Source: an uncultured Clostridia bacterium (GTDB lineage Bacteria; Bacillota; Clostridia; TANB77; CAG-508). Taken from it: a DNA stretch of 48,582 nucleotides. The notes under the pieces are model-generated. The model saw only the letters and a list, made by a program, of their open reading frames with translations. It made no database searches and had not been told where the DNA came from. This document shows positions 2,534-46,748 of this stretch, in pieces. The position numbers were made by a program, and so were the translations under genes. The DNA lies in assembly GCA_934122385.1 (NCBI GenBank), contig CAKOWP010000003.1, positions 1-48,582 on the forward strand, in the 5' to 3' direction. Numbering within the stretch: position 1 is the stretch's first letter; each line of letters starts with the position of its first letter.

Positions 2534-2891
2534 GCATTATTGAGAGTTAGTTATTGTTTAGGATTATGTTCTTTTGATTGGAGTGAAAGATAGAAAATCT
2601 TAAATAAAAAATGAGGGATGTTCACAAAAAAATGTATATGTTTTGATAATTTTATGATTTTATTACGCAACATAAGAATTTCTAAAATATATTTATGGCA
2701 CCCTTCCACTTTGTGAACTCTTTCCATAAATCTTTTTAAGAAATTCTAATATTGCTTAAATACATTTTAAAATTATCAAAACATATACATTTTTTTCTGA
2801 GTGAAAGAGGCTCATATTTTTATTCTAGATTTTCTTTTTGAACGCAATGAATAGAATATAATCCTAAACAATAGCTAACTCTCAATAATGC
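2534..2891 (+). repeat. Long foldback element, copy A (diverged, no clear termini)
   Basis: 358-bp imperfect palindrome. The outer arm GCATTATTGAGAGTTAGTTATTGTTTAGGATTAT (2534-2567) pairs with 2858-2891 at 33/34. The interior shares blocks with copies B, C and D (GAAAATCTTAAATAAAAAA, ACGCAACATAAGAATTTCTAAAAT, TTTCCATAAAT, AAGAAATTCTAATATTGCT). Orientation is defined relative to copy B. Confidence 0.8.
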
Positions 2892-2996
2892 TCCTACACA
2901 CTAATTATTATAAAAAGTGCATTGCCAAAAAACAAAAAAAGATATATAATCAATAAAAAATAAAGACATGTATTATGAGAAAGGAAAAATATTAAA

Positions 2997-4295
2997 ATGA
3001 TAGACAAAGCAAGAGAAATAGCGTTAAAAGCACTATATAAAATAGATAAAGAACAAGCATATTCAAATATAGTATTAAATGATGAAATAAAACAAAACAG
3101 GGACAAAATAAATGACAAAGATATAGGACTGATATCAGAAATAGTATATGGAGTAACAACTTGGAAACTCACAATAGATGAGATTATAAAAAAATATTCA
3201 AAAATAAGACTAAAAAAAATATCACCATGGATATTGAATATATTGAGAATGGGGACATACCAAATAATTTTTTTAGACAAAATTCCAAAATCAGCTGCAG
3301 TAAATGAGAGTGTAAATTTGGCAAAAAGATATGGACATGCTTCAAGCTCTAATTTTACAAATGCAATTTTGAGAAAGATAGAAAAAGAAGATTATGAAGA
3401 ATTTTTTCGAATAAAAGATGATGTGGAAAGAATATCAAAAACAACTTCAATGCCTGTATGGATAATAGAAGAATTAATGAAAAACAATACAATAGAAGAA
3501 GTTGAAGAAATATGTAAAAATTTAAATTTGAGACCAGAAATAATTATAAGAATTAATAAATTAAAGACTACGAAAGAAGAAATAATGCGAAAACTAGAAG
3601 ATGCAAACATTGAATATAGAGAAATTCCAAATATGGAAGATTTTTTAGTATTAAATAAAATAAAAAATATTGAAAATTTAAGCCTTTTTAAAGAAGGATT
3701 ATTTACAGTTCAAGATACATCAGCAGGTCTAACGGCAATTGTTTTGAACCCACAGGAAGATGATAATGTGTTAGATGCATGTTCTGCACCAGGTGGAAAA
3801 ACTACATATATTGCTGAATTAATGCATAATAAAGGAAAAATTGAAGCATGGGATATACATGAACATAGAACAAAATTGGTAGAAAAAAATGCTGAAAGAT
3901 TAGGAATAAAAATAATAAATACAGATGTAAAAAATTCGGCAGAATATGAAGAAAAATATAAAGAAAAGTTTGATAGAATTTTATTAGATGTTCCTTGTAT
4001 GGGGATAGGTGTTATAAAAAGAAAACCAGATATAAAATGGCAAAGAAAAAAAGAGGACATAGAAGAAATTAGCCAGTTGCAAAGAAAAATATTAGAAAAT
4101 TGCTCTAAATATCTAAAAAAAGGAGAATATCTTGTTTATTCAACTTGTAGTATTTTAAAAGAAGAAAATGAAGATGTTGTAAATGATTTCATAAAAAATA
4201 ATAACAATTTTGAAATTGTAAAAAATGGGTTATTTAATATAAAACCAGACAAAGAAAAAGATGGATTTTTTATTTGTAAATTACATAAAAAATAA
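2997..4295 (+). CDS. rsmB: 16S rRNA (cytosine967-C5)-methyltransferase RsmB (NusB-like N-domain plus SAM methyltransferase)
   Basis: N-terminal NusB-like region. SAM site VLDACSAPGGKT and catalytic DVPCMG...YSTCS motifs typical of the RsmB/Sun family. Confidence 0.85.
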   Translation: MIDKAREIALKALYKIDKEQAYSNIVLNDEIKQNRDKINDKDIGLISEIVYGVTTWKLTIDEIIKKYSKIRLKKISPWILNILRMGTYQIIFLDKIPKSAAVNESVNLAKRYGHASSSNFTNAILRKIEKEDYEEFFRIKDDVERISKTTSMPVWIIEELMKNNTIEEVEEICKNLNLRPEIIIRINKLKTTKEEIMRKLEDANIEYREIPNMEDFLVLNKIKNIENLSLFKEGLFTVQDTSAGLTAIVLNPQEDDNVLDACSAPGGKTTYIAELMHNKGKIEAWDIHEHRTKLVEKNAERLGIKIINTDVKNSAEYEEKYKEKFDRILLDVPCMGIGVIKRKPDIKWQRKKEDIEEISQLQRKILENCSKYLKKGEYLVYSTCSILKEENEDVVNDFIKNNNNFEIVKNGLFNIKPDKEKDGFFICKLHKK

Positions 4296-4373
4296 AGTCT
4301 GAAACACTTTAAAAATATTGTTACAGAAATATTACAAGAATATTATATTTATATGACAAATATACCAAAACTA

Positions 4374-4401
4374 TTGACTTTTTTGCTAAAAACGGTAAAA
4401 T
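4374..4401 (+). promoter_or_regulatory. Candidate sigma-A promoter of the pilus operon
   Basis: TTGACT (4374-4379), a 16-nt spacer, then TAAAAT (4396-4401), about 70 nt upstream of the pilMN start. Confidence 0.35.
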
Positions 4402-4471
4402 TAAATAGAAATATGTATTATATTTTTACGTGTAATTTATAAAAATTATAGAATAAAACGAAGGAGAAGAG

Positions 4472-6097
4472 ATGTCAACTTGTTTAGGATTATATATAGA
4501 ACAAAACCTAATTAAATATGCAAAAGTTTCAAAAGACAGAGACCAAATAAAAGTAGAATCTTTTGGTGTAAAGTTTTATGATAATCTTGATCAAACAATA
4601 AAACAAATTGTCGAAGAAACATATAGTTATAGAACCCCAATTAGCATAAATTTGTCTGAAGAGATGTACAATTTTTTCCAGGTATTTGCTTTATTAAATA
4701 AAAAGGATTTACCTAAAGCAATAAAGACGGAATTCGAAGCTTATTGTGGCGATAAAAATTATAACCCAAATGTTTTTGAAACAAGATATGCAATTACTCC
4801 GGATACACAGGAAAAGGAAAGATTAAAAGTAATACACATAAGTGAAAATAAAATTGAATTAAATAAAAAAATACAAAAATTTAGTTCATATAGATTGCAA
4901 AATATAATACCAATATCAATGGCAATATCAGATATTACTAAATTTGAGCCAAAAGAAAATTGCTTGATTGTAAATATAGAGGAAAGTACAACTATAACAA
5001 CAATTTTAGATCAAAACATATATGATATCAAAACATTAGATATAGGTAGCCAAGAAATATTGGACAGAATTAATGTAAAAGAGAATTCTTATCAAAAGGC
5101 ATATGAAATATGCAAAGAAACAACAATTTACACTTCAGAAGGAAAAGAACTTACAGAGGAAGAAACTGGCTACTTGGAAGACATAATGCCAACATTATAT
5201 GATATTTTAGGACAGATAAGGAAAATAATAAATGACAGCATGGATAAGATTGAAAAAGTATATATTACTGGAACAGGAGCTTTGATAAACAATATAGATT
5301 TATATTTTGAAGAATACTTAGAAAATGTACACTGCGAAATATTAAAGCCTAGTTTTATAAAAATATCACCTGAAATAAATATAAAAGATTATGTTGAAGT
5401 TAATTCAGCTATATCTTTAGCACTTAGTGGATTAGGACAAGGGATTGCTGGAATGAACTTCAAGAAAACAAGCTTAATGGATAAATTACCAGATATATTA
5501 AAAATGGAAGTTGGCGGAAAGAAGAAGACAACAAAAGAAGATAAAAAATTAAAAAGTAATTTGTTTACAATTGATTTCAATGTACCATTAGATAAAATAG
5601 AAAAGGCGTTATTAAGAAGTTCGATAGGAATATTAATATTGTTTATAGTTTATTCTTCATTTGCAAGTTTAATAAATAAACAAATAGAACTAAAAAAAGA
5701 ACAAGCACAAGAATCAATAAATAACACAAATTCACAAATAGCATTAGTTAATAATGATATTCAAAGTGCACAAAATAAAACTAGTGAATATACAAGTAAA
5801 ATAAATAATTTAGACGAAATTAATAAAAAATTACAAGAAAATAATAGATTAAAAAAATCAATACCAAATTTGTTAAACAAATTAATGTATGTTATGCCAA
5901 ATGAAGTTCAGCTAACATCTATACAAAACACAACATCAACACATATAGAAATACAGGCTCAATCAAAAAGTTATGCGCAATTAGGATATTTAACAGCTAG
6001 CATAAAAACAAATGGAATACTTACAAATGTTATTTCTACTTCTGGACAGAAAGAGAATAATATAGTTACAATAAAGATAGAAGGTGATTTACCATGA
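4472..6097 (+). CDS. pilM: Type IV pilus assembly protein, PilM-PilN fusion
   Basis: N-terminal ~330 aa is actin-like ATPase-fold PilM-like (LGLYIE..., VYITGTGALINN). A TM helix (SSIGILILFIVYSSFASLI) and coiled-coil/PilN-like C-domain follow. First gene of the pil cluster. Confidence 0.7.
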   Translation: MSTCLGLYIEQNLIKYAKVSKDRDQIKVESFGVKFYDNLDQTIKQIVEETYSYRTPISINLSEEMYNFFQVFALLNKKDLPKAIKTEFEAYCGDKNYNPNVFETRYAITPDTQEKERLKVIHISENKIELNKKIQKFSSYRLQNIIPISMAISDITKFEPKENCLIVNIEESTTITTILDQNIYDIKTLDIGSQEILDRINVKENSYQKAYEICKETTIYTSEGKELTEEETGYLEDIMPTLYDILGQIRKIINDSMDKIEKVYITGTGALINNIDLYFEEYLENVHCEILKPSFIKISPEINIKDYVEVNSAISLALSGLGQGIAGMNFKKTSLMDKLPDILKMEVGGKKKTTKEDKKLKSNLFTIDFNVPLDKIEKALLRSSIGILILFIVYSSFASLINKQIELKKEQAQESINNTNSQIALVNNDIQSAQNKTSEYTSKINNLDEINKKLQENNRLKKSIPNLLNKLMYVMPNEVQLTSIQNTTSTHIEIQAQSKSYAQLGYLTASIKTNGILTNVISTSGQKENNIVTIKIEGDLP

Positions 6098-6807
6098 AAA
6101 AATTATTATTAAGCATATTAACTGTTTTAGTTATTATATTAACAGCTATTACTATGATAAAAGGTTTAAAGATTGGTAATATCAATATCTTAGGAATAAT
6201 GGAAATGAAACAGAAAAATGAAGAATTAGATACAACGGTTAAGGAAGCAACAAAATTGGCTAGTACTGATTATCAAAAAAGAATAGATGACTTGAATGAT
6301 GCTGTTAAAAAATTAGAAACAGAAAAAACAAGTTATGAAGATAGAGTTAATGTTAGTACAGAAAACAATGTAGAAGCAGCAAATCAAACTTATGAAAATA
6401 TGATAGAATTCCTATTAGTAAGAATAGAAAACCATGCAAAAACAGAAGGCGTATCAATGAACATGGTTGTAACTCGTAGCTCATCTGGAGCAGAAAATGT
6501 TTACAATCTTAACTTCACTGCAACAGGAAGTTATGTTGGAATAGAAGAATTTGTAACAGATATAGAAGATGATTCAAGATTAGGTTATAAAATCGAAGAA
6601 TTTAAAATGAATTCTTCTTCAGAAGGTGGAGATACAGTACAAGCAACTTTTGTATGCAAAGATATAAAAATAGAAGGAATTTCTTCTAACGCAGCAAGCA
6701 CTTCAACAACTACAGGTATGACAAATACAACGTCTTCAGGAAGTATTGGAGACACAAACACAACGAGTAGTACATCAAATACAACAACTAACAATACTAC
6801 AAAATAA
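6094..6807 (+). CDS. pilO: Type IV pilus assembly protein PilO-like, with Ser/Thr/Asn-rich C-terminal tail
   Basis: N-terminal TM, a coiled coil, then a PilO-like block YNLNFTATGSYVGIEEFVTDIE. Overlaps the pilMN stop (ATGA). The tail is TSTTTGMTNTTSSGSIGDTNTTSSTSNTTTNNTTK. Confidence 0.55.
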   Translation: MKKLLLSILTVLVIILTAITMIKGLKIGNINILGIMEMKQKNEELDTTVKEATKLASTDYQKRIDDLNDAVKKLETEKTSYEDRVNVSTENNVEAANQTYENMIEFLLVRIENHAKTEGVSMNMVVTRSSSGAENVYNLNFTATGSYVGIEEFVTDIEDDSRLGYKIEEFKMNSSSEGGDTVQATFVCKDIKIEGISSNAASTSTTTGMTNTTSSGSIGDTNTTSSTSNTTTNNTTK

Positions 6808-6824
6808 GAAAAGGAGGGAATAAG

Positions 6825-7271: not shown

Positions 7272-7354
7272 ATAATTAGTTATTAACATTATATTTATTT
7301 TTATAAATATAGTATATATATATTATATCAAAAGAAAAAGGAGGGAAAAACATA

Positions 7355-7588: not shown

Positions 7589-7602
7589 TTAAAAAACTAA
7601 TA

Positions 7603-7636
7603 GGCATATGCATATACAAATGTATATGCCTTTTAT
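7603..7636 (+). terminator. Intrinsic terminator/attenuator after the pilin gene
   Basis: 10-bp stem GGCATATGCA/TGTATATGCC (one G.T pair), 8-nt loop, followed by TTTTAT. Confidence 0.6.
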
Positions 7637-7665
7637 AAAAAATAAACATAGAAAAGGATACAAAG

Positions 7666-8472: not shown

Positions 8473-8495
8473 AAAATAGAGAGGATGGACTACAT

Positions 8496-13596: not shown

Positions 13597-13641
13597 ATGT
13601 CTCATTGAATGTCCCATTAGGGACGGTTCTGTTTGAGACAT
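13597..13641 (+). repeat. Short GGGAC hairpin repeat, copy r1
   Basis: ATGTCTCATTGAATGTCCCATTAGGGACGGTTCTGTTTGAGACAT begins on the base after the pilC stop. The stem ATGTCTCA/TGAGACAT encloses GTCCC-ATTA-GGGAC. It shares the 22-nt block GGGACGGTTCTGTTTGAGACAT with r2 (28778) and r3 (38987, inverted). Confidence 0.8.
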
Positions 13642-13654
13642 TTGACTACCCAAA

Positions 13655-13846
13655 GTTCCTAAAAGATATAAATTTTTATATTTTTTAGTTCAATACACAA
13701 CATAAGAATTTCTAAAATAAATTGATGAATCTTTTTCACTTAGTCCTCACTTCGTTCGACGTGAACGTTTTTCATAAATTTATTTAAGAAATACTAATAT
13801 TGTTTCAATCACATAAAAAATGTAAAAATTTATATCTTTTAGGGAC
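13655..13846 (+). repeat. Foldback element, copy D (core module in different outer arms)
   Basis: 26-bp outer stem GTTCCTAAAAGATATAAATTTTTATA / TGTAAAAATTTATATCTTTTAGGGAC (two T.G pairs). It encloses CAATACACAACATAAGAATTTCTAAAATAAATTGATGAA...CACTTAGTCCTCACTTCGTTCGACGTGAACG...CATAAATTTATTTAAGAAATACTAATATTGTTTCAATCAC, homologous to the cores of B and C. Confidence 0.8.
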
Positions 13847-13893
13847 TATAGTGAAATGTATAACATTCTAATAGATTATTAAGAAGGTGTAAA

Positions 13894-15770: not shown

Positions 15771-15806
15771 TAGTACTTACTTGTAAAAGTGAGTACTGTT
15801 TTTGTA
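15771..15806 (+). terminator. Intrinsic terminator after the transketolase subunit gene
   Basis: Stem AGTACTTAC/GTGAGTACT (one T.G pair) followed by GTTTTTGT. Confidence 0.5.
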
Positions 15807-15809
15807 TGC

Positions 15810-16248
15810 AAGTTGCCACCCTAAGGGTTATTTATATTTGATATTGTACCTATTTGATTGAAGTGAAAAATAGAAAATCTTAAATAAAAAACTGAGGAAT
15901 GCTCACAAAAGAAATGTATATATGTATATGATTTGAAACATTTTCTCGGTTCAATACGCAACATAAGAATTTCTAAAATAAATTGATGGATAATTCCACT
16001 TAGTCCTCGCTTCGCTCGACGTGAACGCTTTCCATAAATTTATTCAAGAAATTCTAATATTGCTCCAATCACATTCGAAAAGTTTAAAATCATATACATA
16101 TATACATTTCTGCCCTAAGTGAGAGAGGCTCAGTTTTGTATTTTAGATTTTCTTTTTAAATGTAATGAACAGGGTACAATATCAAATATATATAACCCTT
16201 AAGATGGCAACTTTTACATAAAAATTTTTTAAGTCTGTGAATTGTAAC
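15810..16248 (+). mobile_element. Long foldback element, copy B (MITE-like, left terminus missing)
   Basis: Arms AAGTTGCCACCCTAAGGGTTATTTATATTTGATATTGTACC (15810-) and GGTACAATATCAAATATATATAACCCTTAAGATGGCAACTT (-16213). The right end continues to ...CTGTGAATTGTAAC (16248), matching the copy C terminus. The interior is near-identical to the reverse complement of copy C (3 differences in a 135-nt stretch I compared). Confidence 0.85.
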
Positions 16249-27863: not shown

Positions 27864-28778
27864 ATGCAAGGGTTAATAATAGAAAATATATCAAATTTAT
27901 ACAAAATAAAAACAGAAAAAGGAACATATGAAGCAAATGCACGAGGAAAATTCAAAAAAGAAGAAATAACACCAGTAGTTGGAGACAAAGTAGAAATACA
28001 AATATTAGACGAAGAGAACAAAAAAGCTGTAATAGAAGAAATACAAGAAAGAACAACTTATATAAAAAGACCCAAAATGAGCAATATAACTCAACTTATA
28101 CTGGTGGTATCAAGTAAAAATCCTAAACCAGATTTATTACTATTAGATAAGCAATTAGTATTTGCGGAATTTTTAGGAATAAAACCAATAATAGTTTTAA
28201 ATAAAACAGACCTTGATAAAAAGAAAGAGTTTGAAAAAATAAAAGAAGTATATCAAAATATAGGCTATACAGTTATAGAAACGATAGCCAAAGACTTAGA
28301 AGAAATACCGGAAAAAAATGAAATGCATTCAGTAGGTATTCATAATTTAGAAAAAAATTTACAAGGAAATATAAATGCGTTTTCAGGAAATTCAGGAGTT
28401 GGAAAATCGACATTAATAAATGCAATTTTTAAAGATACAATAACACAAGAAGGAGAAATTAGCCAAAGAAACAAAAAAGGTAAAAACACAACAACTTCAA
28501 CAAAATTGTATGAAATAGACGAAAATACATATATTGCCGATACTCCAGGATTTTCAACATTTGATATATCTGAAATAGAATATAGAGAATTGGACAAATA
28601 TTTTAAAGAATTTAAGCCATTATTAGAAAATTGTGAGTTTGTTGGATGTACTCATATAAAAGAAGAAAATTGTGGAATAAAACAAGCTTTGCAACAGGGA
28701 AAAATAGATAGTGGTAGATATGAAAGATTTTGTAAAATTTATGAAGAATTAAAAGAAAAAGATAAGTACAAGTATTAA
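27864..28778 (+). CDS. rsgA: Ribosome small-subunit-dependent GTPase A
   Basis: N-terminal OB-fold region, circularly permuted GTPase motifs (VLNKTDL before GNSGVGKSTLIN, DTPGF), and C-terminal zinc motif CEFVGCTHIKEENC. Confidence 0.9.
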   Translation: MQGLIIENISNLYKIKTEKGTYEANARGKFKKEEITPVVGDKVEIQILDEENKKAVIEEIQERTTYIKRPKMSNITQLILVVSSKNPKPDLLLLDKQLVFAEFLGIKPIIVLNKTDLDKKKEFEKIKEVYQNIGYTVIETIAKDLEEIPEKNEMHSVGIHNLEKNLQGNINAFSGNSGVGKSTLINAIFKDTITQEGEISQRNKKGKNTTTSTKLYEIDENTYIADTPGFSTFDISEIEYRELDKYFKEFKPLLENCEFVGCTHIKEENCGIKQALQQGKIDSGRYERFCKIYEELKEKDKYKY

Positions 28779-28821
28779 TGTCTCATTGGGGACGGTTCTG
28801 TTTGAGACATCGGTTCCAAAA
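28778..28821 (+). repeat. Short GGGAC hairpin repeat, copy r2
   Basis: ATGTCTCATTGGGGACGGTTCTGTTTGAGACATCGGTTCCAAAA. The first A is the last base of the rsgA stop codon. A 33-nt block is identical to inverted copy r3. Confidence 0.8.
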
Positions 28822-28847
28822 ACGACAAATGAAACGGAGGAAATAAA

Positions 28848-30855: not shown

Positions 30856-30960
30856 TACAAAACCTCCTTTAAAAAATTTTTTATATGCTAAAATCATATA
30901 TCTTTAGTAGGTTTTTGTCAATTCTTTTAGAGTAATTTTTTTGACAATTCTTTTATAGTA

Positions 30961-31433
30961 GTTACAATTCATAGCCTTAGAAAATTTTTGAGTGTAAGTT
31001 GCCACCTTAAGGGTTATATATATTTGATATTGTATCCTATTCATTACGTTTAAAAAGAAAATCTAAAATACAAAACTGAGCCTCTCTCACTCAGACAAGA
31101 ATGTATATATGTATATGATTTTAAACTTTTCGAGTGTAATTGAAGCAATATTAGAATTTCTTAAATAAATTTATGGAAAGCGTTCACGTCGAGCGAAGCG
31201 AGGACTAAGTGGAATAAGCCATCAATTTATTTTAGAAATTCTTATGTTGCGTATTGAACCGAGAAAATGTTTCAAATCATATACATATATACATTTCTTT
31301 TGTGAGTATTCCTCAGTTATTTATTTAAGATTTTCTATTTTTCACTTCAATCAAACGGATACAATATCAAATATATATAACCCTTAAGGTGGCGACTTAC
31401 ACACAAAAACTTCCTAAGGCTGTGAATTGCAAC
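30961..31433 (-). mobile_element. Long foldback element, copy C (complete, MITE-like, with 8-bp target-site duplication)
   Basis: 473 bp. Termini are GTTACAATTCATAGCC... and ...GGCTGTGAATTGCAAC. The terminal 77 nt of the two arms are complementary at 71/77. Flanked by TTATAGTA at 30953-30960 and 31434-31441. Inverted relative to copy B. No ORF. Confidence 0.85.
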
Positions 31434-31532
31434 TTATAGTAAATTTTTTTGACAATATTTCAAAATTATGTTAATATAATAAGTGTATACAAAATTTTAG
31501 TAAATACAAAATTTTAAAGGATGTTGATTTAA

Positions 31533-31802: not shown

Positions 31803-31880
31803 AGCGCGAAATTTGTCGAACGATTTTTCTTGATTTTGTAAAAGAACTATGTTAATATGTATTTAACTGGTTCTTTTTTT

Positions 31881-31918
31881 TATATATTAGGAAAGTTATG
31901 CAACTTTCCTAATATATA
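31881..31918. repeat. Perfect 17-bp hairpin TATATATTAGGAAAGTT-ATGC-AACTTTCCTAATATATA
   Basis: Perfect inverted repeat with a 4-nt loop. The apex AAGTTATGCAACTT recurs as AAGTTATGTAACTT at 39494-39507. Confidence 0.7.
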
Positions 31919-35203: not shown

Positions 35204-35343
35204 TGTATGGATAAATCGTTTTTTCTAAATAATATTTTTTCATAGACATTTTGTATCATTATAAAGTTTATTCAATAAATTTTAGAAAGGATTTAGAAAA
35301 TTATAAATATTCTTAAATTATTCTGGGAAAGGAGGAAAACAAT

Positions 35344-35862
35344 ATGGATAACAAAGAACTTTTAGAAATATTGGACCAAAGATTCAATAAAATTGATGAA
35401 AAATTTGACAAGATAGATGAAAAATTTGACAAGATAGATGAAAAATTTGACAAGATAGATGAAAGACTTGACAAAATGGATGAAAGACTTGATAAAATGG
35501 ATGAAAGATTTGACAAGATGGATGAAAGACTTGATAAGATGGATGGACAATTTGGTGAAATTGATCAAAAATTCAAAGAATTCAATGACAAAATGGATAA
35601 AGGATTTAAAGAAGTAAATGACAGAATGGATAAAGGATTCAGAGAAATCAATGACAAAGTTGATAAAGGATTTGAAGATATCAATAATAGATTAGATGTA
35701 TTAACAAATTCTAATTTAGCACAAATTCTTAATGCCCAAACCCGAAACACAAAAGAAATAACTGATAAACTAGACAGATACATAGTTAAAAATGAAAGAG
35801 ACCATAAAAAATTTGAATATGAAATTGCTGATACAAAAATGAAATTAAAATTTGCAAGATAG
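35344..35862 (+). CDS. Tandem-repeat coiled-coil protein of unknown function
   Basis: Strong RBS GGAAAGGAGGA. Ten heptads of type D(E/Q)(K/R)(F/L)DK(I/M), then three 11-residue units ND(K/R)(M/V)DKGF(K/R/E)(E/D)(V/I), then a non-repetitive ~60-aa C-terminus. No TM helix or signal peptide. Confidence 0.6.
   Translation: MDNKELLEILDQRFNKIDEKFDKIDEKFDKIDEKFDKIDERLDKMDERLDKMDERFDKMDERLDKMDGQFGEIDQKFKEFNDKMDKGFKEVNDRMDKGFREINDKVDKGFEDINNRLDVLTNSNLAQILNAQTRNTKEITDKLDRYIVKNERDHKKFEYEIADTKMKLKFAR
35374..35682 (+). repeat. Coding tandem repeats: 10 x 21 bp followed by 3 x 33 bp
   Basis: Three identical copies of GATGAAAAATTTGACAAGATA (35395-35457). GATGAAAGACTTGA(C/T)AA(A/G)ATG variants run to 35541. 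33-bp units of the AATGACAAAATGGATAAAGGATTTAAAGAAGTA type run from 35584 to 35682. Confidence 0.85.
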
Positions 35863-38972: not shown

Positions 38973-38986
38973 TAAAATATGTAAAA

Positions 38987-39048
38987 AATGTCTCTTTTGG
39001 AACCGATGTCTCAAACAGAACCGTCCCGAAAGAGACATTCTTTTTTTT
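38987..39048 (-). repeat. Short GGGAC hairpin repeat, copy r3 (inverted), doubling as the ytfJ terminator
   Basis: The plus strand reads AATGTCTCTTT-TGGAACCGATGTCTCAAACAGAACCGTCCCG-AAAGAGACATT followed by CT8. The reverse complement shares 33 identical nt with r2. Confidence 0.8.
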
Positions 39049-39477: not shown

Positions 39478-39489
39478 TTTTTATATATT

Positions 39490-39511
39490 ATAAAAGTTAT
39501 GTAACTTTTAT
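39490..39511. repeat. 9-bp hairpin in the spoIIAA-spoIIAB spacer
   Basis: ATAAAAGTT-ATGT-AACTTTTAT. The apex is related to the hairpin at 31881-31918. Confidence 0.55.
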
Positions 39512-39543
39512 GACATAAATACATTGAAAGGAAAATATAGATT

Positions 39544-40771: not shown

Positions 40772-40792
40772 ATTAAAAATGGAGTGATTATA

Positions 40793-41836
40793 TTGAAAAA
40801 AATTTTAATCTATTTGTTATCATTTATATTAATAATTTTTATAATTCCTGCACTTTTAACCAAACGAACAACATCAACAAGTTCAAAACAAGAAACAGAA
40901 AATCAATTACAGGTTAATAATCAAGAAGAACAGACAACTGAAAATCCAACAGAAACAAGTAATAAAAATACATATAATTATAACAAATATGGAACAATAT
41001 CATTACTACATAAAAAAACTGGAGAAGTTGAACAAGTGAATTTGGACGACTATTTGTGTAATGTTGTATCTGCAGAAATGCCAGCAACATTTGAACTAGA
41101 GGCATTAAAGGCTCAAGCCATAGTTGCAAGAACATATACAATTTATAAAATATTAAATAAAAAACATGATAACGCAGATATATGTGATGACTCAACATGT
41201 TGCCAAGCATGGATTTCAAAAGAAGACAGGTTTGCAAGATGGGAAGAAAACCAAAGAGAAAGTAATTGGCAAAAAATATGCAATGCAGTAAATGATACAT
41301 CAGGAAAAATTATTACATATGAAAATAAACCAATTGATGCATTTTTTCATTCAAATAGTGGTGGAATAACAGAAGTCCCTGTAAATGTATGGGGAGGCAC
41401 AGGATATCCATATTTACAAAGTGTTGAAACATCAGGAGAAGATGCATATACTCAATATTCTTCTGAAGTTGTATTATCACAAGAAGATTTGCTAAATAAG
41501 TTAAAGGAAAAATATGCGGATATTTCAATAGATTTTGCAAATAGTGAAGATATTAAAATTTTAGAATATACAGAAAGTACAAGAGTGAAAACAGTAAAGT
41601 TTGGAAATCACGAGATTTCTGGTGTTGAGGCAAGGACATTATTTGGATTGAAATCTACAAATTTTGATATAACGAGAGATGGTGATAATATTAAATTTTC
41701 TGTTAAAGGTTACGGACATGGTGTTGGAATGAGTCAAACTGGTGCTGATAGTATGGCAAAACAGGGAAGTAGTGCTGAGGATATTATTAAGCATTTTTAT
41801 ACTGGAGTTGTAATTACTGAAGTTAATAAATTGTAG
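40793..41836 (+). CDS. spoIID: Stage II sporulation protein D (lytic transglycosylase)
   Basis: N-terminal TM helix. SpoIID/LytB domain blocks YLCNVVSAEMPATFELEALKAQAIVARTY, FFHSNSGGITE and GHGVGMSQTGA. TTG 40793 lies 8 nt after GGAG; the track start is 40784. Confidence 0.85.
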   Translation: MKKILIYLLSFILIIFIIPALLTKRTTSTSSKQETENQLQVNNQEEQTTENPTETSNKNTYNYNKYGTISLLHKKTGEVEQVNLDDYLCNVVSAEMPATFELEALKAQAIVARTYTIYKILNKKHDNADICDDSTCCQAWISKEDRFARWEENQRESNWQKICNAVNDTSGKIITYENKPIDAFFHSNSGGITEVPVNVWGGTGYPYLQSVETSGEDAYTQYSSEVVLSQEDLLNKLKEKYADISIDFANSEDIKILEYTESTRVKTVKFGNHEISGVEARTLFGLKSTNFDITRDGDNIKFSVKGYGHGVGMSQTGADSMAKQGSSAEDIIKHFYTGVVITEVNKL

Positions 41837-41852
41837 GTAATATGTTATTGAT

Positions 41853-41932
41853 GGTGTAATAGTGTTCCTTGCTCCAATCACATTCAAAACTTATAACATC
41901 ATAGAACCTTTCTTAAGGAACACCATTACACT
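41853..41932 (+). repeat. Foldback-family fragment, copy G
   Basis: An 18-nt inverted repeat GGTGTAATAGTGTTCCTT / AAGGAACACCATTACACT (16/18) encloses GCTCCAATCACATTCAAAACTTATAACATCATA, homologous to GCTCCAATCACATTCGAAAAGTTTAAAATCATA of copy B. Confidence 0.65.
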
Positions 41933-42027
41933 ATAAAAATATTAATGCACAAAAGCAGAATTATAATGTATATTTTTATAAAATCCGGAAATAATTGTAA
42001 TATAAACAAATATTTAAGGAGGATTTT

Positions 42028-42861
42028 ATGAGAAGAAATATTAGAAAAAATAACAAAGATGAAATGAGTATGAGAATAATAAAGTATTCTACAATAGCTG
42101 TTGCAATACTTACAGTAATAGTATTTGTAGTATTAATTTACAGTAAAAAATTAAATGACACTGTAAAAGAAGGAACTTTAACAGGAGAACAATTATCAAG
42201 TATATTAAATAACACATCAAATCAAACAGAAAATACAGAAAGCGCAAGTTCAGAAATTGGAAAAAGTGTAAATGAGATGGCTAATGAATTAAATGCAAAT
42301 AATGCAGTAACAAATAGTTCAAATTCAAATGCAAATGCAACTACTAATAAAAGTACAAAATCAAATAATGTTTTATCAACAAATCAAATAAATAGTAACA
42401 AAATGACTGAATCAAATAGTAAAACAGAAGAAAAGGCTGAAACTAAAAATGTTGAACTAAATTTTGCAAAACCTGTTGAGGGAGATATTGTAAGAGATTT
42501 TGCTGTTGATAGTTTGGTATATTCAGATACTTTACAAGAATGGACAACACATACAGGAATTGATATAAAAGCAGATAAAACAACAGTTGTAAAATCAGCA
42601 GAAGCGGGAATTGTTAAAACTATAAAAAATGACCCCAGATATGGTTTAACAGTAATTGTAGAACATGAGAATGGATTTCAAACAGTATATTCAAATTTGT
42701 TGACATCAGAATTTGTTGTTGAAGGAGAAAAAGTAGAAAAGGGTCAATCACTTGGAACAGTTGGAAATACAGCAGCTTTTGAAATTGCAGATGAACCACA
42801 TCTTCATTTTGAAGTTTTAAAAGATTCAGTTCAAGTTGATCCAAATATATATTTAAAATAG
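42028..42861 (+). CDS. spoIIQ: Membrane-anchored M23 peptidase, SpoIIQ-like
   Basis: N-terminal TM helix, Asn/Ser-rich linker, and an LytM domain with intact HTGIDIKA and EPHLHFEV. Adjacent to spoIID as in some Clostridia. The symbol is inferred from context. Confidence 0.5.
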   Translation: MRRNIRKNNKDEMSMRIIKYSTIAVAILTVIVFVVLIYSKKLNDTVKEGTLTGEQLSSILNNTSNQTENTESASSEIGKSVNEMANELNANNAVTNSSNSNANATTNKSTKSNNVLSTNQINSNKMTESNSKTEEKAETKNVELNFAKPVEGDIVRDFAVDSLVYSDTLQEWTTHTGIDIKADKTTVVKSAEAGIVKTIKNDPRYGLTVIVEHENGFQTVYSNLLTSEFVVEGEKVEKGQSLGTVGNTAAFEIADEPHLHFEVLKDSVQVDPNIYLK

Positions 42862-43092
42862 TTACAGTTCAGTAGGAAAATACCTGAAATACCTGTGAAT
42901 GATATTTTTCATATTTTCTCAGCTTCCCGACATACGTTAACAAATTCTAATGTAAATACTCTAACAATACCCGAAGGCAGGAACCTTTAGAGCATTTACT
43001 TAAGAATTTGTAATACTATTTTGGTCACATTCGAAATATATTCAAAATATCATTCACAGGTATTTCAGGGATTTTTCCTACTGAACTGTAAC
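42861..43092 (+). mobile_element. Short foldback element, copy E (MITE-like)
   Basis: 232 bp. Termini are GTTACAGTTCAGTAGGAAAA... and ...TTTTTCCTACTGAACTGTAAC. Flanked by TTAAAATA (42853-42860) and TTAAAAAA (43093-43100). The first base is the G of the upstream TAG stop codon. Close homolog of copy F (few differences by eye). Confidence 0.85.
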
Positions 43093-43096
43093 TTAA

Positions 43097-43133
43097 AAAA
43101 GTACCTATTATAAAAATAATAGGTACTTTTCTT
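43097..43133 (+). terminator. Intrinsic terminator, displaced from the SpoIIQ-like gene by element E
   Basis: Perfect 12-bp core stem AGTACCTATTAT/ATAATAGGTACT (the full stem AAAAGTACCTATTAT/ATAATAGGTACTTTT spans 43097-43111 and 43116-43130) with a 4-nt loop AAAA, followed by TTTTCTTGATTTTTT. Confidence 0.7.
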
Positions 43134-43160
43134 GATTTTTTCTCTTTTTTGAAGTATAAT
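43132..43160 (+). promoter_or_regulatory. Candidate sigma-A promoter of the AlaRS-like gene
   Basis: TTGATT (43132-43137), a 17-nt spacer, then TATAAT (43155-43160). The ~75-nt leader is too short for a T-box. Confidence 0.45.
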
Positions 43161-43236
43161 TTAAAACATAAAAAATAACAATTTAGAAAAAATTATAGAA
43201 GAATTATCTAAATTATAAGAAAGAGGGAAAAAATAA

Positions 43237-45000
43237 ATGAAGGCAATAGAGATAAGAAATAAATATCTAAACTTTTTTAAAGAACATGGACACGCTGTAA
43301 TACCATCAGCATCATTAATACCAGAAAATGACCCATCAGTACTATTCACAACAGCAGGAATGCAACCATTAGTACCATATTTATTAGGGGAAAAACATCC
43401 ATCAGGAACAAGACTTACAGACTACCAAAAATGTCTAAGAACAAATGACATAGAAGAGGTAGGAGACAACAGACACTTAACATATTTCGAAATGTTAGGA
43501 AACTGGTCATTAGGAGACTATTTCAAAGAAGAATCAATTCAAATGAGTTTTGATTTCTTAACAAAAGAATTACAAATTCCAGTAGAAAAATTATCTGTAA
43601 CAGTATTTGCAGGGGATGACGATTGCCCAAGGGACGAATTAGCAGCAGAATGCTGGAAAAAAGCAGGAATTTTAGATGGACATATTTATTATTATGGAAA
43701 AGACGACAACTGGTGGATAGCAGGAGAAGAAGGCCCATGTGGACCAGATACAGAAATGTTCTATGACACAGGAAAACCAGCATGTGGACCAGACTGTCAA
43801 CCTTCATGTGACTGTGGTAAATATGTTGAAATATGGAACAATGTATTTATGGAATATTTCAAAAGCAAAGATGGAAAATATTCAAAATTAGCTCAAAGAA
43901 ATGTTGATACAGGACTTGGACTAGAAAGAATGACAATGTTATTACAAGGAAAAGAAACACCATTTGATACAGAATTATTCAAACCAGTAATGGACAAACT
44001 ATCAGAATTACAAAAAGTTGATAACATAGAAAGTAGAAGAATCATAGCAGAACACTTACGTTCAAGTATGATGGTAATTAGTGATGGTGGAAGACCAAGC
44101 AATGTTGATAGAGGATATATTTTAAGAAGATTAATTCGTAGAATGGTAAGGCATATGAATAAACTACAAATAAATCTTGATGAAATATCAACATTAATAG
44201 ATATCAATGTTGAAAACTTAAAAGAAATGTATCCAGACTTAGTAAAAAATCAAGAATTGATAAAAAATGTAATAATTGAAGAAAAAAATAAATTTGTAAA
44301 AACACTTGCACATGGTGAAAAAGAATTTGAAAAAGAAATGAATAAAGCTAAAGAACAAGGCAAAACTAAAATAGATGGAAAAGTAGTATTTAAATTATAT
44401 GATACATATGGATTCCCACCAGAAGTTACAAGTGAATTAGCAAAAGAAAACAATATGACTGTTGATATGAAAGAATTTGATGAACTATTTAAAGCACATC
44501 AAGAAAAATCAAGAATGGGTTCAGAACAAAAATTTAAAGGTGGACTAGCAGAACAAAATGACACAACAATCGCATATCATACTGCAACACATTTATTAAA
44601 TGCAGCACTTAAAGTAGTTTTAGGACCAGAAACACATCAAAGAGGTTCAAACATTACAGTAGACAGAATGAGATTTGACTTCAACTGTGACCACAAAATG
44701 ACAGACGAAGAAAAGAAACAAACAGAAGATTTAGTAAATAAATGGATTCAAGATGCAATACCAGTAACAGTAGAAGAAATGAAAAAAGAGGAAGCGGTTA
44801 AATCAGGAGCAGAATGTATGTTTATTGAAAAATATCCTGAAGTTGTAACTGTTTATACAATAGGAGATGTTTCAAAAGAACTATGTGGTGGACCTCATGT
44901 AAAAAATACAAGTGAACTTGGAAAATTTAAAATCAAAAAAGAAGAAGCAAGTTCAGCCGGAGTTAGAAGAATAAAAGCAATTTTGGAAAAAGGGATTTAG
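43237..45000 (+). CDS. alaS: Alanine--tRNA ligase-like protein, short form (587 aa; no beta-barrel subdomain, no C-Ala domain)
   Basis: Class IIc catalytic blocks FTTAGMQP, FEMLGNWSLGDYFK, GPCGPDTEMFYD, VEIWNNVFMEY and DTGLGLERM. tRNA-recognition block PSNVDRGYILRRLIRR. Editing-core HTATH...CGGPH. Ends right after GVRRIKAIL. Confidence 0.75.
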   Translation: MKAIEIRNKYLNFFKEHGHAVIPSASLIPENDPSVLFTTAGMQPLVPYLLGEKHPSGTRLTDYQKCLRTNDIEEVGDNRHLTYFEMLGNWSLGDYFKEESIQMSFDFLTKELQIPVEKLSVTVFAGDDDCPRDELAAECWKKAGILDGHIYYYGKDDNWWIAGEEGPCGPDTEMFYDTGKPACGPDCQPSCDCGKYVEIWNNVFMEYFKSKDGKYSKLAQRNVDTGLGLERMTMLLQGKETPFDTELFKPVMDKLSELQKVDNIESRRIIAEHLRSSMMVISDGGRPSNVDRGYILRRLIRRMVRHMNKLQINLDEISTLIDINVENLKEMYPDLVKNQELIKNVIIEEKNKFVKTLAHGEKEFEKEMNKAKEQGKTKIDGKVVFKLYDTYGFPPEVTSELAKENNMTVDMKEFDELFKAHQEKSRMGSEQKFKGGLAEQNDTTIAYHTATHLLNAALKVVLGPETHQRGSNITVDRMRFDFNCDHKMTDEEKKQTEDLVNKWIQDAIPVTVEEMKKEEAVKSGAECMFIEKYPEVVTVYTIGDVSKELCGGPHVKNTSELGKFKIKKEEASSAGVRRIKAILEKGI

Positions 45001-45130
45001 GGACGTTCCTGAAAATCCCTTTTTCAAGGGAATGGGGGACACTCCTTTAGATTGTAAAATGTTTTGAATTTTAAAAGGAATGTCCCTTTATCCCGATTTG
45101 AAGGGAATTTAAGGAACGTCCCTAAATCCC
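44992..45130. repeat. GGGAC-type 139-bp palindrome, element H
   Basis: Terminal inverted repeat GGGATTTAGGGACGTTCCT(G) / (A)AGGAACGTCCCTAAATCCC at 19/20. The inner pair GGGGACACTCCTTT / AAAGGAATGTCCCT has one mismatch. Four GGGAC/GTCCC motifs. The left arm encodes the last codons and stop of the AlaRS-like ORF. Confidence 0.8.
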
Positions 45131-45154
45131 CTCCGAGAGAAAGGAAAGGTAAAA

Positions 45155-45499
45155 ATGGAAGATTGTTTATTTTGTAAAATAATAAAAGGTGAAATTCCTT
45201 CAACAAAAGTATATGAAGATGATGAAATATTGGCATTTAATGATATAAATCCAGCAGCGCCAATTCATATATTAGTAATTCCTAAAAAACATATAACTTC
45301 ATTAGCACATATGGAAAAAGAAGATGAAACAATTGTTGGAAAAATATATGGAGTTATAAATAAAATAGCAGATGAAAAAGGTTTTAAGGAAAGTGGATAT
45401 AGAGTTATTGTAAATTGTGGAAAAGATGCGGGACAAGAAGTTATGCATTTGCATTTTCATGTTTTAGCAGGTGCTAAATTTGGAGATAAGATAGTATAA
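45155..45499 (+). CDS. hinT: HIT-family (HinT-like) nucleotide-binding protein
   Basis: CLFCKII.GEIP..KVYEDDEILAFNDINP and the histidine triad HLHFHVLAG. Confidence 0.85.
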   Translation: MEDCLFCKIIKGEIPSTKVYEDDEILAFNDINPAAPIHILVIPKKHITSLAHMEKEDETIVGKIYGVINKIADEKGFKESGYRVIVNCGKDAGQEVMHLHFHVLAGAKFGDKIV

Positions 45500-45699
45500 T
45501 TAATTAGGATATATAAAATTAATAAAGCATATAAAATTAATATTGAAATTAGGTATATTGGATATTAGTTTTATAACAGTTATTAGTACATCAGAAAACA
45601 AAAGTTAACATAAAAAAATAAAAATTTGTAAAAAAATTGTAAAATGAACTTTTATATGTTATAATGTAATTAGAGTTTAAAAGTACGGAGGTAAAAGGT

Positions 45700-46374
45700 A
45701 TGTTTGAGAGTAAATATAGTAAAGTATTAACAGTAGTGTTAGTAATAGTAATTATAGCAATAGTTGCACTATTAGGATTTTTATCTTATGATTTTATAAA
45801 AAAATATAATACATCAAAACAAGCATCAGACTTTGTAGAAGAATATCAAGGAAATCTTACAACAAGTGACCAAGGAAATGATACAGTTCAAGAGAATGTT
45901 ACATTAGATGATGCAAATGAAGCACCAATAACAAGTACTAGCACAAGTGGAAATTCAGGAAAGAAAAAATATGAAGGATTTACAGTAGTTGGTACTATGA
46001 AAATTCCTGCAATAAATTTGGAATACCCAATTGTTCAAGAAGTATCAACAAAAGCTTTAGAGAAAGCTTTAATAGCATTGTATCCAAGTGGTGATAATTT
46101 AAATTTACCTGGTAATACAGTTGTTATCGGTCATAATTATAGAAATGGAATGTTTTTCTCTAATTTGAAAAAACTAACTAATGGAGCAAAAATATATGTA
46201 ACTGATTTTAGAGGTAAATCATTAACATATGAAGTTTATAATAAATTTGAGGCTTCTTCAACAGATACATCTTTCTATACTAGAGATACAAACGGGTTAG
46301 CCGAATTAACATTATCAACTTGTACAGATGCAAGTAATGATCAAAGAACAATAATTTTTGCTAAACAAATTTAA
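45700..46374 (+). CDS. Sortase-family transpeptidase
   Basis: N-terminal TM anchor, VIGHNYRNG (catalytic His), LTLSTCTD (TLxTC Cys) and QRTIIFA (Arg). No LPXTG substrate recognised in the window. Confidence 0.75.
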   Translation: MFESKYSKVLTVVLVIVIIAIVALLGFLSYDFIKKYNTSKQASDFVEEYQGNLTTSDQGNDTVQENVTLDDANEAPITSTSTSGNSGKKKYEGFTVVGTMKIPAINLEYPIVQEVSTKALEKALIALYPSGDNLNLPGNTVVIGHNYRNGMFFSNLKKLTNGAKIYVTDFRGKSLTYEVYNKFEASSTDTSFYTRDTNGLAELTLSTCTDASNDQRTIIFAKQI

Positions 46375-46390
46375 TTATATATATAAAAGG

Positions 46391-46418
46391 GCTTACAAGA
46401 AATTGTAGGCTTTTTTCT
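46391..46418 (+). terminator. Intrinsic terminator of the sortase gene
   Basis: Stem GCTTACAA/TTGTAGGC (one T.G pair) followed by TTTTTTCT. That T-tract is the target duplicated by element F. Confidence 0.6.
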
Positions 46419-46652
46419 GTTACAGTTCAGTAAGGAAAATTCCTGAAATACCTGCGAATGATATTTTTCATATTTTCTCAGGTTCCCTACATGATGTTAA
46501 CAAATTCTAATGTAAATACTCTAACAATACCCGAAGGCAGGACCCTTTAGAGCATTTACTTAAGAATTTGTAACATTATTTTGGTCACATTCGAAATATA
46601 TTCAAAATATCATTCGCAGGTATTTCAGGGATTTTCCTTACTGAACTGTAAC
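46419..46652 (+). mobile_element. Short foldback element, copy F (MITE-like, perfect 8-bp target-site duplication)
   Basis: 234 bp. Termini are GTTACAGTTCAGTAAGGAAAA... and ...TTTTCCTTACTGAACTGTAAC. Flanked by TTTTTTCT at 46411-46418 and 46653-46660. Confidence 0.9.
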
Positions 46653-46748
46653 TTTTTTCTTTATAAAATTTGCAGAATTTAAAAAAAATACTTTAAAAAA
46701 ACAAGAAAATGTTATACAATATACGAAAAGTAAAAAAAGGAGAAAGGT

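Follow-up and report, generated by a model that had tools for sequence, protein, structure and literature searches.

Intergenic palindromes of an uncultured gut Clostridium include a probable MITE family with ISBst12-type ends

Four of the long palindromes in the intergenic DNA of an uncultured gut Clostridium (B, C, E and F) are MITEs of a single-ORF IS66-family transposase clade with ISBst12-group architecture; A and D are locus-bound palindromes, and G, H and r1–r3 are other repeats. We give this reading a probability of about 80%. All of these features lie in a 48,582-nt stretch of one contig, which we refer to as the window. B, C, E and F form a MITE family that is itself new but of a known type: they are 232–473 nt long, within the size range of MITEs (under ~600 bp), have no coding capacity, and carry terminal inverted repeats (TIRs) at both ends (C, E and F) or at the right end only (B). 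Such repeats are absent from A, D, G and H.

A repeat search of the window recovered a palindrome at every locus listed in a preliminary description of this DNA (Table 1). Each element folds into one long hairpin, with z-scores of -17 to -21 for the DNA folds of the element palindromes (single-stranded DNA: C, -122.6 kcal/mol, z = -21; A, -91.8 kcal/mol, z = -18; F, -69.3 kcal/mol, z = -17). The elements occupy 2320 nt, or 4.8% of the window and ~35% of its ~6.6 kb of non-coding DNA, in good agreement with the earlier estimate of ~2.3 kb, 4.7% and one third. As had been described, they contain no ORF, overlapping ORFs by only 1–9 nt at gene ends, and no IS66-type transposase is found in the window (tblastn best E = 2.3).

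Within the repeat search, B matches inverted C over 311 nt at 95% and 141 nt at 89% identity, and E matches F at 93–96%. The core CAACATAAGAATTTCTAAAATA... / ...AAGAAATTCTAATATTGC, reported as common to A, B, C and D, was recovered by both repeat search and BLAST, in which D matches it at 89% over 113 nt and A at 91–94% over 35–44 nt. Shared blocks are indeed commoner than chance. With at most one mismatch, GTTACARTTCA occurs 11 times in the window against 2.9 expected, a count reached in 0 of 100 shuffles, and seven of the 11 matches coincide exactly with element ends; TCACATTCGAAA occurs four times, in B, E, F and G, with 0.29 occurrences expected. Extending this second block to C was a slight overstatement, as C has only a two-mismatch variant. 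The terminal GTTACARTTCA and 8-bp duplications ascribed to the elements hold for C, E, F and the right end of B, and A, D and G have neither.

Table 1. Coordinates of the palindromic features of the window and of one autonomous IS from a related genome.
Feature	Position	Strand	Description	Ends and other details
A	2534..2891		358-nt foldback	Without IS-type ends or target duplication
r1	13597..13645	+	52-nt AATGTC...GGGACGGTTC...GACATT repeat	Nested in loop of pilC terminator hairpin
D	13655..13846		192-nt foldback with B/C core	Without IS-type ends or duplication
B	15798..16248		B/C-type MITE, orientation opposite to C	Right terminus 16238-16248 intact
r2	28777..28830	+	Copy of 52-nt AATGTC...GACATT repeat	Begins at stop codon of upstream gene
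C	30961..31433		Full-length B/C-type MITE, 473 nt	GTTACAATTCATAGCC / GGCTGTGAATTGCAAC
r3	38985..39042	-	Copy of 52-nt AATGTC...GACATT repeat	Inverted orientation
G	41834..41963		130-nt indel polymorphism	Without IS-type ends; contains 80-nt palindrome 41853-41932
E	42861..43092		E/F-type MITE, 232 nt	GTTACAGTTCAGTAGGAAAAT / ...CCTACTGAACTGTAAC
H	44992..45130		GGGACGTTCC-type palindrome	Family separate from MITEs
F	46419..46652		E/F-type MITE, 234 nt	Directly 3' of terminator hairpin
Autonomous IS	L076:4636-6506		1871 bp, one 499-aa ORF	GTTACAGTTCAGTAAGAAAAT / ATTTCTTACTGAACTGTAAC; duplication ATTTTATT

C is flanked by a perfect 8-bp target duplication (TTATAGTA, 8/8, at 30953-30960 and 31434-31441). 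It is missing from seven of ten conspecific contigs, and the other three hold a 207-nt copy that is internally deleted and inverted. The filled allele also contains a 27-nt tandem duplication, and the empty allele presents no clean single-duplication site; given that additional duplication, the empty allele could be a secondary deletion. B is left-truncated: its left terminus is missing and it adjoins the terminator hairpin of the upstream gene. The truncated form recurs in L005 and L010, with its interior inverted, and L008 keeps only GTTACACGATTGTAAC at the junction.

E has a 7/8 duplication (TTAAAATA/TTAAAAAA), and the stop codon of the M23-peptidase gene upstream of it ends on the first base of the element. 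It is present in all eight syntenic contigs, inverted in one of them (L029). The duplication around F is again perfect (TTTTTTCT, 8/8, at 46411-46418 and 46653-46660). An unexpected observation is that the F site can carry either an F-type or a B/C-type element with identical junctions: in L028, L034 and L089 a 363-nt B/C-type element sits at F's junctions, with F's duplication.

Beyond the window, the 20-nt E/F terminus was found in 55 stretches of a one-genome-per-species collection, all but one from Clostridia or Clostridium MAGs and one labelled Bacilli, where it caps many unrelated interiors of 60–470 nt. Nineteen full E/F-type copies, at no fewer than 11 sites in two to three species-level MAGs, are 96% identical. 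Among 20 copies, B/C-type elements and two full IS copies included, the 8-bp duplication matches at 8/8 positions in 13 and at 7/8 in six. Several ‘solo’ ends in the genome scan proved to be 60–240-nt elements with diverged partners, or truncated copies; the first search for partner ends had covered up to 4 kb from each genome-scan match and mostly reached housekeeping genes. Seventeen matches to the E/F terminus in viral contigs, all single and unpaired, were judged random. Exact-protein look-up of AlaS and of the 219-aa protein adjoining C returned no record, and the HIT protein and an 89-aa ORF were used as queries in their place.

The B/C-type and E/F-type classes are alike only in ~11–20 nt at their ends, which does not fit the earlier picture of a conserved core within variable outer stems as one design. 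Instead, the shared core is interior sequence common to the B/C class and the two locus-bound palindromes.

A longer, transposase-bearing element with the same ends, for which a search had been proposed, was found outside the window in related gut Clostridia. This partner IS is 1.83–1.87 kb long, with the same 20-nt ends, 8-bp duplications and one IS66-family transposase of 484–504 aa; E/F ends match its ends at 95% over 20–22 nt. The ORF of the copy in Table 1 matches Pfam DDE_Tnp_IS66 (PF03050) at E = 1.6e-23 (score 84 against a cut-off of 23.1) and NCBIfam IS66 (NF033517) at E = 6e-40 over profile positions 3-385 of 387, where its score of 137 falls below the curated 180. It is the single ORF of at least 90 aa inside this IS, which has no tnpA/tnpB accessory ORFs. 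Searches returned 709 transposase homologues at E ≤ 1e-10, mostly on IS-sized contigs of 1.8–2.3 kb, and metagenome IS copies with transposases down to ~37% identity still have ends of the form GTTACAGTTCAG..., with 8-bp duplications. Such duplications were found at the IS copies in L076, L092, L107, L115, L125, L126, L132 and L201-L206, and a 1832-bp IS occupies four distinct loci in long-read contigs with perfect duplications. The nearest annotated plasmid homologues, ‘IS66 family transposase’ genes of Bacillus, Geobacillus and Deinococcus, are only 27% identical.

The match of the B/C class to this IS is shorter. B/C-type ends match known IS ends over only 11–13 nt, and none of 80 metagenome IS loci has an IS with the full B/C-type end GTTACAATTCAYAGCC, which is seen only in mini-elements and solo ends. 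In a long-read contig, a 46-nt mini-element with B/C-type ends and the TSD AATTAATA lies 19 nt from one IS copy. The MITE interiors have no similarity to the IS interior or UTRs beyond the ends; the MITEs are not simple deletion derivatives of the IS. No copy of the IS transposase was seen in the window or in any contig tied to the window's own species, and MAGs usually lose IS contigs; the elements are therefore no more than candidates for present-day mobility in this genome. Mobilisation of B, C, E and F presumably takes place in trans, since the window encodes no transposase. This part of the preliminary description agrees with their TIRs, their 8-bp duplications and the matching IS in related genomes, and it does not carry over to A, D, G, H or r1–r3.

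ISBst12 comes from Geobacillus stearothermophilus and ISDge4 from Deinococcus geothermalis. The ISBst12 group of the IS66 family is defined by a single ORF without tnpA/tnpB accessory ORFs, and one of its members, ISDge4, combines the TIRs GTGACTACTCAGCA / GTAACTGCTCAGCA with one transposase and direct repeats of 8 bp (PMC12898284). The partner IS resembles the group in its single ORF with a DDE_Tnp_IS66 domain and an N-terminal coiled-coil/DUF6444 region, in its lack of tnpA/tnpB, in its length of 1.83–1.87 kb and in its 8-bp direct repeats; its ends follow a GT(T/A)AC.G.TCAG.A pattern, to be compared with GTAACTGCTCAGCA of ISDge4 and with the GTAA/GT.AC-type inverted ends typical of the group. 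On its termini, 8-bp duplication and single-ORF transposase, the parent IS is best placed in this group, so that the architecture, earlier held not to be assignable to a described family, has termini that fit one. Unlike the group as described, the partner clade has a divergent transposase (27% identical to its closest annotated plasmid relatives, with an NCBIfam IS66 score under the cut-off) and has spawned a large, diverse set of MITEs; its hosts are uncultured low-GC gut Clostridia, unlike those of the named examples.

Correia/NEMIS elements, ERIC, RUP and the IS982-derived Cardinium MITE are bacterial MITEs that fold into long hairpins. The window MITEs are like them in being short, non-coding and intergenic, with IS-matching TIRs, a fixed-length duplication, many copies and presence/absence polymorphism. 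They differ in having IS66/ISBst12-type ends and an 8-bp duplication, in forming palindromes from end to end (up to 473 nt), in placing several unrelated interiors on one end set, and in showing in situ inversion and two classes at the same site.

The remaining palindromes behave differently from these MITEs. The interior of A (~2563-2862) is colinear with the B/C-type interior, and its outer arms of 29–39 nt are unique to the A locus; all ten conspecific contigs carry A, six of them with the entire palindrome inverted. D also has locus-specific outer arms, and its spacer holds D in L005, a different palindrome in L008 and L010, and none in L001 and L003. G, first described as an 80-nt fragment at its palindrome, is corrected to the longer indel of Table 1, whose junctions have AATT microhomology only; the segment is present in L089, its site is empty in L028 and L029, and a 35-nt block in it is 86% identical to B. 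No second copies of the A and D outer arms or of the G segment were found outside the orthologous loci (~1.5 Mb of related DNA for the A and D arms). We conclude that A and D are locus-bound palindromes with a B/C-type interior, whose transposon ends were lost or never present.

These findings bear on the original proposal of a single family under one enzyme. If all loci from A to G were one MITE family, A, D and G would be variants with diverged ends, and the 90–300 nt of B/C interior in A and D, the block common to G and B, and the indel polymorphism of G all speak for this. We nevertheless consider it unlikely, since GTTACA termini and a target duplication are both missing from A, D and G, the outer arms of A and D are each confined to one locus within the ~1.5 Mb of related DNA, and A is fixed among the ten conspecific contigs. 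H and r1–r3 belong to another, 52-nt family of GC-richer palindromes (50–140 nt) that lie just after genes at many loci, like REP/BIME elements, and are unrelated in sequence to the MITEs. Relatives of H occur in L042, L080, L091 and L183-L190, with no match in the L028-L035 contigs.

A second unexpected observation is in situ inversion, in some strains, of palindromes A, B, C and E. The inversions are seen in consensus contigs, together with that of a further palindrome (L181:11740-11895), and at A the opposite orientations occur in flanking haplotypes that hardly differ. Inversion always takes in the palindrome as a whole, with exchange within the outermost ≤17 nt. An assembly artefact was considered and rejected: flipped copies keep all arm mismatches, at mirrored positions. 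Perfect arm stretches reach at most ~27–33 nt, and typical final assembly k-mers are assumed to be longer, so k-mers spanning from flank to arm must exist in the reads.

In situ inversion, the opposite orientations at A, and the position of all elements in intergenic DNA upstream of plus-strand genes would also suit invertons, that is, elements flipped by a recombinase as switches for neighbouring genes, with the transposon features incidental. This is rather improbable. The outer arms of the flipping elements (A, B, E and L181:11740) are unrelated and hence offer no common recombinase site, and inversion of the whole palindrome with exchange at its extreme ends fits a structure-driven mechanism. 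Moreover, neither the window nor syntenic annotations contain an invertase, save a Xer-like integrase outside the window, and between B and ftsE lies a promoter region belonging to ftsE itself, which the element-free L001 contig has as well.

Selection for RNA pairing, acting on structured RNA genes or on terminator or stabiliser hairpins, is a very improbable reason for the palindromes. The folds are very stable, E and the r-type repeats begin at or near stop codons, and seven outer-stem base pairs have compensatory double changes in E/F copies; however, the covariation term is tiny (-0.66 kcal/mol), concerns the outer stem only and is explained by arm-to-arm copying. There was no Rfam match at the gathering threshold, and at E ≤ 1 three chance-level hits appeared, with mir-1743 (E = 0.28) in the central loop of H and none in the MITEs. 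A given locus carries either orientation or no element in conspecific strains, and target duplications and IS ends show transposition. The dense intergenic palindromes and the REP-like r-type and H repeats (r1 lying nested in a hairpin loop) would also suit REP/BIME-like elements mobilised by a RAYT, or palindrome-associated elements (PATEs) dependent on a Y1 transposase of the IS200/IS605 type. Either is scarcely credible here, since B, C, E and F have true TIRs and 8-bp duplications, features that Y1-transposase elements do not produce, the ends of these four agree with those of a DDE IS66-type element, and neither the window nor the annotation of any syntenic contig shows a Y1 or RAYT gene.

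For B, C, E and F as IS66-clade MITEs, we propose that a transposase encoded elsewhere in the genome or population would bind the terminal ~11–20 bp (GTTACARTTCA...), move the element and make the 8-bp target duplication. The interior would be free to vary, which would account for the two size classes and for the many classes in related species that are alike only at their ends. Loss of interior from the palindromes may give the series of 16–76-nt mini-elements that keep both ends. As imperfect palindromes over their whole length, the elements would be structurally unstable; their arms would co-evolve, and in situ inversion would most likely arise by polymerase template switching between the arms, a generic palindrome mechanism. 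PMC8604942 describes such switching in inverted repeats as a source of homogenised arms and inverted spacers. The present inversions resemble the rearrangements treated there in lying between the outer ends of imperfect inverted repeats and in the paired arm changes. They differ from that case in concerning transposon-derived palindromes of 230–470 nt in a bacterial chromosome, and in being a common polymorphism between closely related strains.

More speculatively, and with odds we put on the low side, the element ends may allow an element to be inverted in place or swapped for another family member at the same junctions, with the original 8-bp duplication kept. The route might be cleavage by the transposase and subsequent reintegration, or gap repair with a different copy as template, and the swap would be a bacterial counterpart of P-element replacement. 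If true, fixed intergenic sites would be cassette positions whose content and orientation change over the time in which strains diverge.

The assignment names the source of about one third of the non-coding DNA of this region and ties it to a specific transposase clade in an uncultured gut Clostridium. It also links the poorly studied single-ORF ISBst12 branch to a large and diverse MITE population in many uncultured Clostridia, for which no description was found in the literature searched (IS66/ISBst12-derived MITEs, invertons with MITEs, Fusobacterium MITEs). With the 11–20-nt conserved ends and the 8-bp duplication, these elements can be annotated in gut metagenomes, where they break assemblies and create strain-level structural variation. 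Their frequent inversions and the class swap at one site are natural material for the study of palindrome instability in bacteria, and they call for caution with tools that identify ‘invertons’ by their inverted repeats.

The MITE reading holds for four intergenic palindromes of the window, B, C, E and F, and their family can be named: they are MITEs of an insertion sequence (IS) of the IS66 family that resembles ISBst12 and occurs in uncultured gut Clostridia. A repeat search recovered all loci of the preliminary description. C is a copy of the B element in the opposite orientation, with 95% identity along a 311-nt stretch and 89% along another of 141 nt; E matches F at 93-96% identity, and the core blocks common to A, D, B and C were found again by repeat families and sequence comparison. 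Folding gave one long hairpin for each long palindrome (z = -17 to -21 against shuffled controls). The terminal 11-mer GTTACARTTCA occurs 11 times in the window, where 2.9 are expected, and seven of these 11 coincide exactly with element ends. The shared block TCACATTCGAAA occurs four times against 0.29 expected, although C holds only a two-mismatch version. The elements sum to 2320 nt, which amounts to 4.8% of the whole window or ~35% of the non-coding DNA in it, in line with the original estimate.

The 8-bp flanking duplications are real, but neither A nor D has one; both also lack IS-type ends and probably do not belong in the mobile family in which they had been placed. B is not a complete element, its left end being lost, and G, listed as a fragment, is a 130-nt indel without such ends. 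The MITE inference, drawn for the whole set, stands for B, C, E and F. Judged by sequence, A and D are most plausibly palindromes tied to their loci and related to the B/C class, rather than additional mobile classes. Both share a homologous interior with the B/C type (A aligns colinearly with B for ~300 nt, and D shows 89% identity over 113 nt), and their outer arms have no copy away from their own loci in ~1.5 Mb of related sequence.

The GGGAC-type palindromes H and r1-r3, listed beside the MITEs, are distinct repeats unrelated to them. r1-r3 are copies of a 52-nt repeat, AATGTC..GGGGACGGTTC..GACATT (AATGTCtCaTTGGGGACGGTTCTGTTTGAGACATCGGTTCCAAAaGaGACATT), found at no fewer than 12 distinct loci in related contigs, usually directly 3' of a gene; r1 itself lies in the loop of a terminator hairpin whose L005 and L010 counterparts are bare. 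H is a GGGACGTTCC-motif palindrome related to the 52-nt repeat, with relatives in several species. It has no BLAST match in the L028-L035 contigs and is thus another polymorphic repeat family.

A longer element with the same ends and a transposase gene, as the preliminary description had anticipated, was found outside the window, which indeed encodes no IS66-type protein. This 1871-bp IS, in contig L076, consists of a terminus, 311 nt, a 499-aa ORF and an inverted terminus, followed by a repeat of the flanking 8-mer ATTTTATT, with no accessory ORFs inside it. The ORF encodes a DDE transposase of the IS66 family (Pfam E = 1.6e-23, exceeding the gathering score); it matches NCBIfam IS66 over the whole profile at E = 6e-40, with a score under the curated cut-off. 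At E <= 1e-10 it has 709 relatives, chiefly on IS-sized contigs, and in several MAGs contigs break exactly inside the IS ends, as expected of a multicopy repeat. Across 80 metagenome loci, where the IS termini carry clean 8-bp duplications, the termini GTTACAGTTCAG are kept in relatives with transposase identity down to ~37% and grade into GTAACTATTCAGA at ~30-34%. In long-read contigs a 1832-bp copy occupies four distinct loci, with a perfect duplication at each; next to one of them, at a distance of 19 nt, is a 46-nt element whose ends are of the B/C type (GTTACAATTCATAGCC ... GCTGTGAACTGTAAC) and whose duplication is AATTAATA. Contigs L201 and L204, also long-read, have, ~0.9 kb away from one of the IS copies, a pair of bAvd and reverse transcriptase that looks like a diversity-generating retroelement.

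ISDge4, a published element of the ISBst12 group, ends in GTGACTACTCAGCA / GTAACTGCTCAGCA, encodes one transposase only and has a repeat of 8 bp (PMC12898284). Since the partner IS is like it in all three respects, it fits this group within the IS66 family, and the elements, formerly called unassignable, can be assigned to its MITEs. The nearest annotated plasmid homologues of the transposase (Bacillus, Geobacillus, Deinococcus) are only 27% identical, and within the window the MITE match to the IS is confined to the 20-22-nt ends of E and F.

A scan with the 20-nt E/F terminus, using one genome per species, found it in 55 stretches, 14 of them in CAMBEE01, the species-representative MAG. All but one, labelled Bacilli, are in Clostridia or Clostridium MAGs, from guts of human, rabbit, deer and others; carriers include Clostridium sp. 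CAG:575, CAG:343 and UMGS1516. The terminus caps full E/F-type copies (19, at 11 or more sites, 96% identical), mini-versions of 60-76 nt and numerous unrelated interiors (85-300 nt); 8-bp duplications accompany most of these. Mini-elements come in graded sizes (16, 37, 46 and 62-76 nt) that keep both IS-type ends with the interior nearly all gone, a series that fits internal deletion driven by the palindrome. The short palindrome TATATTAGGAAAGTTATGCAACTTTCCTAATATA is found repeatedly between genes and could be the remnant of a heavily deleted MITE, as a similar hairpin in L071 is fused to an E/F-type terminus. In L031, a more distant relative, a right end of B/C type stands alone (GGTCTGTGAACTGCAAC) upstream of alaS, at the position of E in the window's species.

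Contigs coding for identical FtsE, HIT, SpoVAC or 89-aa proteins are from human gut metagenomes; one, L188, comes from assembly ERZ10544646, which underlies CAMBEE01. All ten conspecific contigs have A, six of them in inverted orientation. Opposite orientations occur on almost equal flanking haplotypes (window versus L187; L184 versus L186 and L188), and over the whole palindrome the L187 copy equals the window's copy reverse-complemented, without a difference. A mismatch that tells the arms apart, 18 nt from the end, is reversed too, which places the exchange within the outermost 17 nt or less. B is flipped in L005 and L010, E in L029 and C in L192, L199 and L200. One more palindrome with the core, close to the window but not in it, is flipped as well.

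An assembler artefact is excluded as the source of the flips: flipped copies keep their arm mismatches and perfect stretches are short, so that an assembler needs supporting reads for them. Recombination between strains could mimic recurrence, and only at least one flip per locus can be stated firmly. Because the arms of the flipping elements are unrelated and IS ends are missing from one of these elements, an inversion mechanism driven by structure is favoured on sequence grounds. PMC8604942 describes arm homogenisation and spacer inversion through polymerase template switching between inverted-repeat arms. Such switching would invert the palindromes, and would also account for the seven compensatory pair changes in the E/F copies, all in the outer stem.

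At the C site, seven of the ten conspecific contigs have a 170-nt element-free spacer and three a 207-nt copy, internally deleted and inverted, with identical junctions; in this comparison C is full-length in the window only. The flank is duplicated in tandem there (27 nt, GTCAATTCTTTTAGAGTAATTTTTTT / GACAATTCTTTTATAGTAAATTTTTTT) and C sits inside unit two; element-free alleles have one unit only. Because filled alleles also hold this duplication, the empty allele may be ancestral or a secondary deletion.

At the F site the window, L029, L030, L032 and L033 have the F-type element of 234 nt; L028, L034 and the species-representative MAG have one of B/C type, 363 nt long. Both alleles have identical junctions, the identical duplication TTTTTTCT and nearly identical flanking haplotypes. 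Target duplications at other sites are AT-rich and without consensus, so a second insertion coinciding at this site seems unlikely; end-directed replacement is possible. G is absent from L028 and L029. In L008 and L010 the pilC/ROK spacer that holds D has a different ~170-nt palindrome, in which a TTGCTCCAG...CACTCACATTCG block is similar to B and G. In some strains the transketolase-ftsE interval has extra ORFs without a Pfam match, directly next to where B is inserted.

Positions of palindromes, repeats and neighbouring features
Feature	Contig	Position	Remark
Mini-element	L008	9846-9861	
Mini-element	L091	13274-13310	
Mini-element	L202	11534-11579	
Mini-element	L042	2968-3042	
Mini-element	L048	7875-7938	
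Mini-element	L074	5039-5100	
TATATTAGGAAAGTTATGCAACTTTCCTAATATA palindrome	window	31877-31916	
TATATTAGGAAAGTTATGCAACTTTCCTAATATA palindrome	window	39478-39517	
TATATTAGGAAAGTTATGCAACTTTCCTAATATA palindrome	L031	11210-11250	
Solo B/C-type end	L031	8020-8036	
52-nt repeat	window	13597-13645	r1
52-nt repeat	window	28777-28830	r2
52-nt repeat	window	38985-39042	r3
52-nt repeat	L008	6430	
52-nt repeat	L028	16030-16160	
52-nt repeat	L188	7555	
52-nt repeat	L043, L044, L047, L058, L074, L075		
H family	window	44992-45130	H
H family	L042	4437	
H family	L080	3232	
H family	L091	16508	
H family	L183-L190	around 9.5-10.1 kb	
C-site tandem duplication	window	30914-30960 and 31434-31460	
C-site tandem duplication	L191	2880-2935	
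D-spacer palindrome	L008	6480-6680	window orthologue 13650-13850
D-spacer palindrome	L010	5330-5520	window orthologue 13650-13850
Extra ORFs by B site	L010	7435-9351	638 aa
Extra ORFs by B site	L008	8619-9789	171 + 182 aa
bAvd and reverse transcriptase	L201 and L204	7423-8827	
Small ORF downstream of recA	window	35344-35862	
In-frame tandem repeats	window	35323-35690	21 nt + 33 nt

The window is AT-rich (GC ~27%). It contains housekeeping genes of the chromosome, almost all of them in + orientation: rsmB, type IV pilus genes, a ROK kinase, transketolase, ftsEX, recA, a sigF-type operon, spoIID, alaS and a recJ-like gene. Its host is a low-GC, spore-forming, uncultured gut Clostridium. The small ORF immediately downstream of recA contains in-frame tandem repeats, and its orthologues range from 147 to 187 aa across conspecific contigs, so that repeat number is polymorphic.

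In the searchable literature, which does not extend to ISfinder, we found no description of MITEs from the ISBst12/IS66 group. The kind of element is familiar and the family new; the unusual parts are the same-site class swap at F and the inversion polymorphism.
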